A stretch of 32,000 nt of DNA, taken from Geotalea uraniireducens Rf4 (lineage in GTDB: Bacteria > Desulfobacterota > Desulfuromonadia > Geobacterales > Geobacteraceae). The stretch covers positions 1,680,001 through 1,712,000 of the forward strand of contig NC_009483.1 of assembly GCF_000016745.1 (NCBI RefSeq), given 5' to 3'. Position numbers and translations under genes: made by a program. Below the pieces are notes generated by a model, which saw nothing but the letters and a program-made list of their open reading frames with translations, made no database searches and had not been told where the DNA came from. Shown piece after piece: positions 28,401 to 30,540 of this stretch (within the stretch, counting starts at the first letter, position 1; each line of letters begins with the position of its first letter).

Positions 28401-30232
28401 GCTGCACGAGCTGCGGCGGCGGGGTGGACAAACTAACGGCGCTGACCGACGCCAAGGGGCAGACGACGAGCTGGCAGTATGACCTTCTCGGGCACCTCGC
28501 GAGCGAAACCGACCCCCTGCAGAAGGTGACCGCCTACATGTACGACCCGGCGGGGAGGATGAACCTGAAGACCGACGCCAATGGCGCGGCCGTTGCTTAC
28601 GGTTACGATCCCCTGCGGCGGCTGACCGGCAAGACCTACCCTGACGGAAGCAGCCTGAGCTACACCTACGACACCGCTGGACACGTCCAGACCGCGGCGA
28701 ACAGCAATGTTACATACATTTACGCCTACGACGCTGCTGGGCGGGCGACGAGCGTCACCGATTCCCGCGGCTACACGCTTGCCTATGAATACGACCTCCT
28801 TGGCAATCGGACGAAGATGAAATTCCAGCCGGGGACAGCCGACGAACGCATCACCACCTATGCATACGACGACGGCAACCGCCTGACCGACATCATCGCT
28901 CCGGCCGGTACCTTTACTTACGGTTATGATGCGCTTGGGAGAAGGACGAGCCTCGGCTACCCAAATCAGGTGACCGCAGCCTACACCTATGATGATGCGG
29001 GACGGCTGACGAGCCTTAGCCATACGGCTGGCGGCTCTACCATTGCGGCGTTCAGCTATGCCCTGGATAACGTGGGGAACCGGACGAGCAAGGCGACGAC
29101 CGAGGCGGAGAATTATCTGTACGATGTCGTCTACCGGTTGTTGAACGCCGCCTCTCCCAAACCGGAGACCTTCACCTACGATGCCGTGGGGAACCGACAG
29201 ACGGGACCGGGAGCGAAGGATACCGGCTATCTTCACAATGCCGGCAACCAGATGACCCAGGGGCGGAAGCTCGCCTACGGCTACGACAACAACGGCAACC
29301 AGACCAACCGGGCCGTTCCCGGAGCGTTTGACAAAAGCTGGACTCAGACGTGGGACAACGAGAACCGGCTGGTGAAGGTGGAGAAGGTGAAGGGAGCGGA
29401 GAAGCGGACGGTGAGCTTCAGCTACGACCCCTTCGGGCGGCGGATCGTCAAGCAGATGACCGTCGTGAAGGATGGCGTAACGAAGACGAGCAGTTCGAGC
29501 TACGTCTACGACAACGACAACATCGCGCTGGAGGTCTACACGGACGAGACCGGCGCGGTGACGAAAACCTTCTACACCCACGGAGCCGGCATCGACGAGC
29601 ATTTGGCATTGGAGCACGGCGGCCAGTTCTATTACTACCACGCCGACGGCCTCGGGAGTATCGTGAGCATCACCGACGCGAACAGGAATGTGGTGCAAAG
29701 CTACGAGTACGACTCCTTCGGGATGGTGAAGCCATCCACCGTCTTTGCCAACAGCTACACCTACACGGGAAGGGAGTGGGATAAGGAGACGGGGCTCTAC
29801 TTCTACCGCGCTCGGTACTATGATCCGATGGAAGGACGCTTCATCAGCAAGGACCCCGTAGGATTTAAAGGTGGAATCAACATCTACGCTTACGTTTCCA
29901 ATAACGTAGTTAATGATACTGATCCATCGGGGCTTTATCCCGGCCCATGTGGGAATGATAGCCATCAGTGGGTTCCTGATAGTCCTTGGGGATTTTGTGA
30001 TTTTTCAGGTCCATGCCAAAGACATGATGATTGTTATGGATGTTCAGGTAAGCGACAAGGCAAAACTAAATCTCAGTGTGATCGGGATTTTCTAAATAAT
30101 ATGCTGAACACCTGTAAGGGGTTGCAAGGTAAAGCCTATACTACGTGTGTAGGGGCTGCATATGTTTACTATGTTGCAGTATCTAGGGGAGGTGACAAAG
30201 ACTTCGATAATGCCAGAAAATGTTGCCAGTAG
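25430..30232 (+). CDS. RHS/YD-repeat polymorphic toxin (~1,600 aa): signal/anchor, Cys-rich N-domain, FlgD-Ig-like domain, YD shell, RHS core (DPSGL), PLA2-like C-terminal tip
   Basis: ATG 25430 lies 7 nt after AGGAG, and the N-terminus is MIFFNKLIKYYFLCLAILIIHFLLF. There are dozens of YxYDxxGNxxxxTDPxG repeats. The RHS-associated core is YTGREWDKETGLYFYRARYYDPMEGRFISKDP...NDTDPSGL. The 98-aa tail carries CQRHDDCY. Confidence 0.95.
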   Translation: MIFFNKLIKYYFLCLAILIIHFLLFNENAFGNTYLTNVKIFGGNAHYYQKTTSNAVPDPASHGSEYVGSCNIGSLIWFTEYTGEYDKKIDVSVSGGNFSRCTFINSSGAITFTDDGCVSCTEPKSSESSGGCTNYNEENFQMTLMAGYFAKEYNCDRSIYPCERSSGPCGFETNEASSSFDLLLSCDGDMQFDKIIISGHNAAWDSNMVPGSLFLINGISPTTSSGSLTWEIPFDGKCGDRITMTSSVPYSYGAIEVDSISAIPIFCDIKIDNLSTTKATIDPNAGETTIFYGSISSSKSYTWILSVGGKTVNGSGNPSVVWDGKDSTGNIVADGMYTATLTAMTTDGKCSDSATTQVEVKKGPEQCNLDHDFQSRVNVTTGWLSHSQDLFSLKGGSLSTSISLAYNSLAPRTGPIDTDIIHHFQKALHVRDDGSILYREWDQTLVYTFSDTGYQPPSGDTSTLVKNVDGSYVLTDVDGTVNNFNQNGKISATVEPSGKTYGFAYTADSVTVTDPYNKSTIFSILYYNSINPMTGTLGTGWSHNYEIALQDQGNGAILFKDGQLSRLYTRSGDTYVSPPGDYSTLVKNTDGTFVITEKDGLNHNFDQWGRILSRLDKNGTAMTFAYDGGNLSGVTDGAGRTVTFAYDGTNKLLSVTDPKGNAYTFGYDGGNLITVTNPDSGQWSYTYDPAGFLLTKADPGGNVVTYVYDDTHRVISGTDPEGRSRDLDYAASVPGSDTAKTTTFKEKDGGEWQYTYDTSAGTLTSKTDPLGNTTSFTYDSRKKMLTKTEPVIGTTTYSYDANDYMTSLTDPLSNTTSYTYNSRGQVLTVSGPAGTTTNTYDANGNLLTVTDPARATTTYEYDPKGNVTKITDAKGKATTFVYDASGMLTSTTDQTGATTTYTHDANGSMATSTDTTGKVTTFTYDGMNRLATVTDPLGHVTTYDYDKIGNRTSVTDANGNTTTYKYNYRGQVIEAKDAQGSTTTYTYGATGCTSCGGGVDKLTALTDAKGQTTSWQYDLLGHLASETDPLQKVTAYMYDPAGRMNLKTDANGAAVAYGYDPLRRLTGKTYPDGSSLSYTYDTAGHVQTAANSNVTYIYAYDAAGRATSVTDSRGYTLAYEYDLLGNRTKMKFQPGTADERITTYAYDDGNRLTDIIAPAGTFTYGYDALGRRTSLGYPNQVTAAYTYDDAGRLTSLSHTAGGSTIAAFSYALDNVGNRTSKATTEAENYLYDVVYRLLNAASPKPETFTYDAVGNRQTGPGAKDTGYLHNAGNQMTQGRKLAYGYDNNGNQTNRAVPGAFDKSWTQTWDNENRLVKVEKVKGAEKRTVSFSYDPFGRRIVKQMTVVKDGVTKTSSSSYVYDNDNIALEVYTDETGAVTKTFYTHGAGIDEHLALEHGGQFYYYHADGLGSIVSITDANRNVVQSYEYDSFGMVKPSTVFANSYTYTGREWDKETGLYFYRARYYDPMEGRFISKDPVGFKGGINIYAYVSNNVVNDTDPSGLYPGPCGNDSHQWVPDSPWGFCDFSGPCQRHDDCYGCSGKRQGKTKSQCDRDFLNNMLNTCKGLQGKAYTTCVGAAYVYYVAVSRGGDKDFDNARKCCQ

Positions 30233-30258
30233 TTTTCTAAACTCGTATAGGACTTAAA

Positions 30259-30540
30259 ATGAAACCATTCAAAGCAAATATATTGATTATCGCTGTTTAT
30301 TTGACTTTATGTTTTGCATCATTGATATTCTTTATTGTTGATCAGCCCAATAAATTTTCCTCCATTTTCATTGTTTTGTTGACCTTTCCTTGGAGCTTCG
30401 CGCTTACGGAAATATTATATCGGTCTGGGATTGCTATAAAAGGATTATTATTAAATAGTTGCGTTTTCGTTATATTTACATTCCTCAATTCCTTGCTCCT
30501 AAATATTTTTATAAAGTTGATTTGGACAAAAAAGGATTGA
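30259..30540 (+). CDS. small 3-TM membrane protein, candidate cognate immunity protein
   Basis: It starts 26 nt after the rhs stop, on the same strand and in the same AT-rich composition as the toxin tip. Three hydrophobic spans are ILIIAVYLTLCFASLIFFIV, IFIVLLTFPWSFALTEIL and LLNSCVFVIFTFLNSLLLNIFI. Confidence 0.75.
   Translation: MKPFKANILIIAVYLTLCFASLIFFIVDQPNKFSSIFIVLLTFPWSFALTEILYRSGIAIKGLLLNSCVFVIFTFLNSLLLNIFIKLIWTKKD

Follow-up and report, generated by a model that had tools for sequence, protein, structure and literature searches.

A phospholipase A2 toxin tip of the Tox-PLA2 type and its candidate DUF7942 membrane immunity protein at the end of an Rhs gene of Geotalea uraniireducens Rf4

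In a stretch of 32,000 nucleotides (nt) of the Geotalea uraniireducens Rf4 genome (contig NC_009483.1, positions 1,680,001 to 1,712,000; hereafter the window, with all positions counted from its first nucleotide), an Rhs/YD-repeat polymorphic toxin gene ends in 98 codons for a real phospholipase A2 (PLA2) domain of the cysteine-rich secreted type, filed under PF09056/Tox-PLA2. The gene directly behind it encodes a membrane protein of 93 amino acids (aa) from the DUF7942 family, which, judging by gene order and co-variation, is very probably the cognate immunity protein of this toxin tip. A preliminary description made from the sequence alone had taken the end of the Rhs protein for a cysteine-rich secreted PLA2 followed by an immunity candidate, and this core of the description was borne out by profile searches, by a match to a PLA2 of known structure, by an AlphaFold2 model, and by a structural search with that model. 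Taken as a whole, the explanation of the locus as an Rhs-PLA2 toxin with a DUF7942 immunity protein is considered likely.

The RHS core had been placed to end at NDTDPSGL. The RHS-associated core TIGR03696 ends exactly there (residues 1465–1540 of the 1638-aa open reading frame, ORF; E 1.3e-24), its final residue being the Leu of this motif (codon CTT, 29933–29935). The tail that follows up to the stop codon at 30230–30232 contains ten cysteines (C5, C21, C27, C33, C36, C48, C60, C71, C96, and C97), and the coordinates given earlier for this tail and for its His codon (30023–30025) proved correct. Searched on its own, the tip matched the Pfam family PF09056 (Phospholip_A2_3, prokaryotic PLA2) with 42.3 bits (E 1.3e-10, gathering cut-off 29.4); within the full Rhs protein the score was 37.2 bits. 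A single-sequence phmmer search against the PDB retrieved the PLA2 of Streptomyces violaceoruber (SvPLA2; 1FAZ/1LWB/1KP4) with an E-value of 1.6e-7 together with two further microbial PLA2s. With a profile built from 31 relatives, 1FAZ was found at E 1.7e-14 and the Tuber borchii PLA2 4AUP was added. Sequence matches in the PDB were limited to 1FAZ, 4AUP, 7YGK, and 8K1W. Residues H30, D31, and D49 of the tip align to H64, D65, and D85 of 1FAZ, and D8 aligns by register to D43 of SvPLA2, a calcium ligand. In group XIV PLA2s, catalysis is defined by a His/Asp dyad and by the Asp beside the His (PMC11525133).

The AlphaFold2 model of the tip, based on the alignment of 31 sequences, consists of a short hairpin followed by five helices (predicted local distance difference test, pLDDT, 86; predicted template modelling score, pTM, 0.80). 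A Foldseek search of the PDB with this model placed 4AUP_B, 1FAZ, and 4AUP_A on top (query-normalized template modelling score, TMq, 0.63–0.65; probability 1.00), and the next match had a probability of just 0.35. Residues 85–98 form an additional C-terminal helix, with a Cys-Cys pair at its end, outside the PF09056 match. C60 and C71 align to the second disulfide pair of SvPLA2 and C27 aligns to C61 of that enzyme; from the alignment, C5 probably substitutes for the SvPLA2 cysteine that would be expected at the position of His10.

Relatives of the tip are numerous. Searched exhaustively with HMMER, a set of 1.84 billion cluster representatives yielded 604 of them at E<=1e-3; quicker word-index homologue searches returned just 1–7. 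The best 150 of the 604 are mostly C-termini or fragments of YD/Rhs proteins in which the PLA2 domain stands directly after DPxGL, and in the relatives inspected the CxxHD motif usually lies 23–26 residues past the Leu of DPxGL. In the family alignment (31 sequences, 37–57% identity), C5, P14, D15, F23, C27, H30, D31, C33, Y34, C48, D49, F52, C60, and Y78 are invariant and G6 is nearly so. Of 151 relatives, 148 keep the motif CxxHDxCY, and 25 carry the animal-type, PROSITE-like CCxxHxxC. The candidate calcium loop of the tip reads CGND, unlike that of SvPLA2 and unlike the CGSG found in the majority of the family. A giant repeat protein with 18 matched stretches (P0008, 2846 aa, E 8e-22) was rejected as a PLA2 array; it has no CxxHD motif and is likely a repeat or composition artefact.

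The preliminary description had likened the tip to the bee-venom/group III and related small types on the strength of three motifs that follow each other as in secreted PLA2s (sPLA2s). The order of the motifs stood: when the family profile was compared with bee-venom and bovine pancreatic PLA2 by hhalign, the Ca-loop-like YPGxCG, CxxHDxCY, and CDxxF segments were paired, at weak probabilities of 52% and 70%, respectively, with the two reference sequences. Membership in the bee-venom/group III family was rejected, as was membership in the classical sPLA2s. Among the PLA2 profiles that had been named for a check, only PF09056 was found, along with the folds of 4AUP and 1FAZ; neither PF05826 nor PF00068 nor another PLA2 family gave a Pfam match to the tip even at E<=10, no classical or bee-venom sPLA2 structure was matched by the family profile among PDB sequences at E<=1, and Foldseek returned none either. 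Moreover, the tip has P-C-Q-R-H-D-D-C and C-G-N-D, not the sPLA2 signatures C-C-x-x-H-x-x-C and x-C-G-x-G. The motifs that resemble animal sPLA2s thus reflect superfamily-level features, not group III membership.

The 93-aa ORF was confirmed to lie in the same AT-rich block, 26 nt behind the Rhs stop codon; its start codon (ATG 30259) has an AGGA 8–11 nt upstream, and the block formed by tip and ORF has 33–43% G+C vs 55–66% in the Rhs core. Its product matched PF25637 (DUF7942) with 31.5 bits (Pfam cut-off 26.7), as did 12 of 12 aligned homologues. Against the NCBIfam model NF046119, “SCO4225 family membrane protein,” a score of 27 was obtained, below the cut-off of 33; RefSeq nevertheless uses this name for its entry WP_041245338.1, which matches the protein exactly. 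Y14, L17, F33, L41, T42, P44, W45, and N77 are conserved among the homologues. The protein has three hydrophobic segments, and both of its termini are rich in Lys and Arg.

The proposal that this downstream membrane ORF is the immunity gene gained strong support from conserved synteny. Every DUF7942-like homologue retrieved is encoded directly downstream of a PLA2 tip, in 16 distinct loci besides the window. The search from the immunity side led to L001, L002, L003, L004, L007, and L008 and to the metagenome loci L020–L024, all with the gene directly after a PLA2 tip of the same clade (L005 and L006 were repeat recoveries and stand outside the count of 16). From the toxin side, 11 loci were obtained from GTDB species genomes, and a DUF7942 homologue was the next ORF in five of them (L009, L010, L011, L015, and L018, from five different lineages of metagenome-assembled genomes (MAGs): two proteobacterial ones, one of the Bacillota, Syntrophorhabdus, and Smithella). 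In three others (L012, L013, and L016), the immunity slot or its vicinity holds another kind of membrane protein, with four segments; the remaining three show another four-segment protein, a contig edge, and a weak match followed by a non-membrane protein. The second membrane family (L012 617–1072, L013 4702–5124, and L016 183–596) comprises proteins of ~125–140 aa with four segments and conserved W..PY and MP.WN motifs, and follows PLA2 tips of other sub-clades. No homology to DUF7942 was detected by hhalign (probability 0.9%), and no Pfam model exists for it. Further small membrane ORFs occupy the same slot in L014 (4285–4722) and in L013 (4317–4598), the latter a three-segment ORF that precedes the four-segment one.

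Across 12 loci, the pairwise identities of toxins and partners were correlated (Mantel r 0.71, permutation p 2e-4). Divergence was faster in the partner than in the toxin: toxins 85% identical had partners 68% identical, and at 56% toxin identity the partners shared 27%. The correlation fits cassettes that are inherited together and diversify together. The association of DUF7942 with PLA2 seems, in a small sample, to be specific to the polymorphic-toxin setting, as the DUF7942 gene was absent from the neighbourhood of standalone PLA2 genes of Streptomyces, Kitasatospora, and Deinococcus plasmids (three of three loci).

Some cassettes showed additional features. In L010 (4614–5669) and L015 (3262–4488), more Rhs C-terminal cassettes with other tips stand directly after the DUF7942 gene and look like arrays of orphan toxin modules; the further tip of L015 has CCIKHDKCY and is possibly another PLA2-like domain. 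Transposase-like genes of the IS200/Y1 type adjoin PLA2/DUF7942 cassettes in L004 (2046–3032), L011 (1074–1778), and L023 (546–1238); a Y1_Tnp Pfam match was recorded for L004 only, and the ORFs of L011 and L023 were judged by eye. In L023, the PLA2 tip seems to be disrupted by the transposase-like gene, and a frameshift affects the immunity gene. Such neighbours may bear on the mobility or decay of the cassettes.

The features of the locus are collected in Table 1. The longest ORF spanning the Rhs gene (25316..30232, + strand) encodes 1638 aa. The deposited GenBank model starts at ATG 25430 (1600 aa), with an AGGAG at 25419–25423, 7 nt upstream; the RefSeq model starts later, at 26435, and therefore is without the signal peptide and the AT-rich N-terminal part. 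Exact matches are ABQ25671.1/A5GE16, entered as “YD repeat protein,” and WP_041245337.1, entered as “phospholipase A2.” RHS repeats were found in 25 stretches (PF05593 RHS_repeat, E 1e-107, Pfam), and further matches were obtained to DUF6531 (Pfam) and to TIGR01643 as well as TIGR03696 (NCBIfam). Read from its sequence, the N-terminus at the deposited start is a probable Sec signal peptide. Codons 1 to ~330 (25350–26400) are AT-rich (32–41% G+C) and Cys-rich and gave no Pfam match. Because both ends, at 32–41% and 33–43% G+C, depart from the repeat core, the gene is a mosaic at both ends.

Table 1. Features of the Rhs-PLA2/DUF7942 locus (positions in the window)
Feature	Position	Strand	Basis
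Rhs/YD-repeat polymorphic toxin gene	25430..30232	+	PF05593, DUF6531, TIGR01643, TIGR03696, exact accession matches
Probable Sec signal peptide MIFFNKLIKYYFLCLAILIIHFLLFNENAFG	25430..25522	+	Read from sequence: basic n-region, hydrophobic core, A-F-G end
RHS-associated core ending in the DPSGL autoproteolysis motif	29708..29935	+	TIGR03696; DPSGL at 29921–29935
PLA2 toxin tip of the Tox-PLA2/PF09056 type, 98 aa	29936..30229	+	PF09056, 1FAZ match, AlphaFold2, Foldseek
C5-G6-N7-D8, candidate Ca2+-loop segment	29948..29959	+	Suggested by conservation and hhalign pairing
Catalytic His30 (CAT 30023–30025) and adjacent Asp31 (GAT 30026–30028)	30023..30028	+	Paired with H64-D65 in the 1FAZ alignment
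Codon of Asp49, partner of His30 in the His/Asp dyad	30080..30082	+	Aligned to D85 of 1FAZ; invariant in the family
DUF7942 membrane protein, 93 aa, candidate cognate immunity, WP_041245338.1	30259..30540	+	PF25637, synteny, co-variation
Orphan Rhs core-end fragment, …YTSTGREWDRETGLYYYRARYYDPMEG then stop	30590..30684	+	77/95 nt (81%) identical to 29750–29844

The orphan Rhs fragment, which stops after …YYDPMEG, is probably what remains of a tip that was displaced when the PLA2/immunity cassette recombined in, and so delimits this cassette on its 3' side. Upstream, the genes scanned (12.6–24.6 kb) are housekeeping genes: those for aromatic amino acids (pheA, tyrA, and aroA), cmk, ispH, and rpsA. 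Between them and the Rhs gene lies a group II intron (22600–24772, + strand). The intron contains a reverse transcriptase/maturase ORF (22989..24572; RVT_1 and GIIM) and the catalytic domain RF00029 at 24622–24772 (53.3 bits, Rfam). Downstream, a 367-aa protein with a signal-peptide-like start (30841–31944, + strand) exactly matches ABQ25672.1, named a DUF4034 domain protein in UniProt; it gave no Pfam match at E<=10, and no link to the toxin locus was seen. A scan of 29800–31000 for promoters and terminators found nothing above shuffle expectation.

What was observed is the identity of the domain, the conservation of its catalytic residues, its modelled fold, its place behind the autoproteolysis motif, and the pairing of toxin and immunity genes. 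These are joined here into a proposed mechanism, of which the activity of the enzyme, the compartment, the route of export, the target organism, and the mode of immunity are predictions. The Rhs protein would be made with a Sec signal peptide, and its YD-repeat shell would enclose the tip. The C-terminal aspartyl-protease core would cleave after DPSGL and release the tip of 98 aa, a presumably small, all-helical, disulfide-rich, and Ca2+-dependent PLA2 of the secreted type whose folding should need an oxidising compartment. From the periplasmic or outer face, the tip would cut the sn-2 acyl ester of target-cell membrane phospholipids, giving lysophospholipid and free fatty acid and breaking the membrane barrier. 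His30 is predicted to activate water, Asp49 to orient His30, and Asp31 together with the C5–D8 loop to hold Ca2+. In the cytoplasmic membrane of the producer, DUF7942 would neutralise the tip at the membrane interface, so that the producer and its kin are protected. Tip and immunity gene would form one AT-rich cassette that was recombined onto a GC-rich Rhs core.

Several points weigh against this explanation and need to be set beside it. The PF09056 match spans profile positions 30–108 of 110 and hence less than the complete domain; because it begins at position 30, the tip is without the N-terminal part of the standalone enzymes. The Foldseek E-values were ~1e-2, a level that is due to the small size of the domain. 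The disulfide map differs from that of SvPLA2, as the position of the partner of C61 is held by His10. On the immunity side, the AlphaFold2 model of the DUF7942 protein is poor (pLDDT 63, pTM 0.35), with the middle segment broken at F-P-W. Of its description as a protein with three transmembrane (TM) segments, the hydrophobic segments stood; the TM count is not secure and the topology is ambiguous, because of the wealth of K/R at both termini and the break in the middle segment at the conserved P-W. An arrangement of two TM segments and, between them, a re-entrant segment that faces the periplasm is equally possible. The neighbour census used short conserved patterns and narrower alignments and so covers the closer relatives and the nearer part of DUF7942, the correlation of toxin and immunity identities may reflect linkage rather than co-evolution, and the standalone PLA2 genes noted above have no DUF7942 neighbour. 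With regard to export, the profile scan of the Rhs protein found no PAAR domain, and the window holds no gene for PAAR, VgrG, or another secretion-system component.

Four other readings were weighed. That a Cys-rich tail resembles PLA2s in its motifs by mere chance can be dismissed almost with certainty: the domain is short and Cys-rich sequences do give spurious matches, as one was seen in P0008, but the PF09056 score above threshold, the PDB profile match at E 1.7e-14, and a model that retrieves only PLA2s refute it. It is very unlikely that the tip has a PLA2 fold without being catalytic and acts by membrane perturbation in the manner of a Lys49 myotoxin, or binds lipid for another purpose. 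The missing profile positions 1–29 and the departure of the CGND loop from SvPLA2 and from the family majority would fit such a tip, and polytopic membrane immunity proteins are usual for pore-forming or membrane-disrupting toxins. Nevertheless, His30, Asp31, Asp49, and Tyr34 are invariant in sequences of 37–57% identity, and CxxHDxCY is almost universally kept; catalytic residues should be conserved to this degree only where selection acts on catalysis, which argues against a non-catalytic tip.

The two readings that concern the partner and the target leave the PLA2 domain as it is. The 93-aa ORF might instead encode an accessory factor for toxin export or membrane insertion, or an unrelated membrane protein that travels with the cassette; neither Pfam nor NCBI records a function for it, the literature search met with no mention of either family name, and the NCBIfam score lies below the cut-off. 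This is unlikely in view of the slot directly 3' of the tip and in the same AT-rich block, which is the canonical immunity position, and of the linkage in 16 of 16 distinct loci from diverse lineages, including the orphan cassettes L002 and L010 without a full Rhs gene. Furthermore, the partner diverges faster than the toxin, as immunity proteins do, and unrelated small membrane proteins fill the same slot after other PLA2 tips. As to the target, the toxin could be aimed mainly at eukaryotes such as protist grazers or fungi, with DUF7942 only protecting the producer during periplasmic passage. The Sec signal peptide, the lack of PAAR or type VI secretion system (T6SS) genes in the window, and the secretion of close PLA2 homologues by fungi and actinomycetes would suit such a target, and Zhang et al. 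(PMC3482391) note a wide use of PLA2s against eukaryotic membranes. Diversifying toxin/immunity cassettes, orphan tips, and orphan immunity genes are, however, the hallmark of kin-directed interbacterial conflict, and Nte1, the sole Rhs-PLA2 to have been tested, exerts its killing of bacteria in the periplasm (PMC8263058). A mainly eukaryotic target is therefore rated as rather unlikely, and it is compatible with an Rhs-PLA2 toxin paired with DUF7942 immunity.

The suggestion that the tip and its partner might be an undescribed toxin/immunity family did not hold for the toxin: Tox-PLA2 was defined on RHS proteins in 2012 (PMC3482391), RefSeq names the protein “phospholipase A2,” and a comparable pair, Nte1/Nti1, has been tested (PMC8263058). 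The tip is a further Tox-PLA2 member and ordinary for the field. The modestly new part is the pairing of DUF7942 with PLA2, since Zhang et al. list no immunity protein for Tox-PLA2. A literature search gave no mention of DUF7942 or SCO4225 and nothing relevant on PF09056/Phospholip_A2_3 in toxin systems. The link between DUF7942 and PLA2 tips was not found described in the literature searched, and neither was the succession of PLA2 tips and small polytopic membrane proteins of unrelated families.

If the proposal is correct, DUF7942 (PF25637) gains a function as cognate immunity of Rhs PLA2 tips, and the empty immunity column of Tox-PLA2 in the 2012 catalogue would be filled. A wider generalization, for which the arguments appear to us evenly balanced, is that small polytopic membrane proteins (DUF7942 and at least one unrelated family) constitute an immunity class of their own, embedded in the membrane and directed against secreted-type PLA2s delivered by Rhs proteins. 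They would act at the surface of the bilayer on an interfacial enzyme and neutralise it there, perhaps via the conserved K-F…L-T-x-P-W segment; they would differ from the soluble periplasmic inhibitors of the Tli type known for other antibacterial lipases, and evolution would have arrived at this solution repeatedly. It would follow that the clade of Rhs tips, with its CGxG loop and CxxHDxCY on a scaffold like that of group XIV, bridges animal sPLA2s and the microbial group XIV enzymes. A membrane protein of ~90 residues that blocks a secreted-type PLA2 would, if true, be a compact model for interfacial lipase inhibition. Likewise, an N-terminally truncated PLA2 clade of ~95 residues would offer a minimal scaffold for enzyme engineering, which is of interest because SvPLA2 is an industrial enzyme.

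Among the closest known systems is Tox-PLA2 itself. Pelobacter propionicus belongs to the same order as Geotalea. A protein from this organism is the example given for Tox-PLA2 by Zhang et al. (2012, Biol Direct 7:18, PMC3482391), who describe Tox-PLA2 as a toxin domain with the 1KP4 fold on RHS (or ALF) repeat proteins. In agreement with this, the Geotalea protein has a 1KP4/1FAZ-related fold at the C-terminus of an RHS protein, features of Sec-type secretion, and a CxxHxxxY core, and the module is built in the same order, with 25 RHS stretches, a TIGR03696 core that ends at DPSGL, and the PLA2 domain behind it. Of the signature given there (DxC[ST], CxxHxxxYxN, and C), CxxHxxxY is present as C27..H30..Y34, whereas NDSH stands in place of DxC[ST] and Y-G-C in place of YxN. 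Unlike the catalogue entry, for which no immunity protein is listed, the tip of the window is paired with the DUF7942 candidate.

An experimental precedent for the proposed mechanism is provided by Nte1 of Neisseria cinerea, a PAAR-Rhs-PLA2_like effector. Its toxicity to E. coli depends on targeting to the periplasm and is relieved by the product of the downstream gene, Nti1 (Custodio et al., 2021, eLife 10:e63755, PMC8263058). Both systems combine a C-terminal PLA2-like domain on an Rhs protein with a partner gene that follows it; unlike the PAAR-bearing Nte1, the Rhs protein of the window has a signal peptide and no PAAR. The C-terminal 15 aa of Nti1, LIYKLKKIFKLSKLN, which were translated by hand from primer CE048-R (PMC8263058), resemble the hydrophobic, Lys-rich tails of DUF7942 proteins, and Nti1 might, as a lead only, belong to this family. 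A tblastn search of plasmids with the tip gave no match, and a search with the published Nti1 primer found no Neisseria plasmid.

With the group XIV (XIII) PLA2s, such as SvPLA2 and TbSP1 (4AUP), the tip shares the His/Asp dyad with the adjacent Asp and the helical core, and its C60 and C71 align to the second disulfide. Those enzymes are standalone secreted proteins with an N-terminal helix and two disulfides, whereas the tip is without positions 1–29 and has ten Cys and an extra helix ending in CC. Furthermore, its CxxHDxCY keeps the Cys two residues past HD, as in animal sPLA2s, where SvPLA2 has CARHDFGY. The animal sPLA2s (PF00068, PF05826) show the same order of an xCGxG-type Ca loop, CxxHDxCY, and CDxxF; they have C-C where the tip has P-C.

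Unlike the “evolved” Rhs effectors of T6SSs, the Geotalea protein has a signal-peptide-like N-terminus in place of an N-terminal PAAR, and no VgrG/T6SS neighbourhood within the window. The Tle lipase effectors of these systems are alpha/beta-hydrolases or enzymes of the phospholipase D type, not sPLA2 folds, and their Tli immunity proteins are soluble periplasmic proteins or lipoproteins. Tle1–5 are antibacterial phospholipases that act from the periplasm and have adjacent immunity genes (PMC8263058). In contrast to Tli, the candidate immunity protein described here is a small polytopic membrane protein, and in this respect it comes closer to the proteins that confer immunity to pore-forming colicins or to the ionophoric CdiA-CT(EC93).

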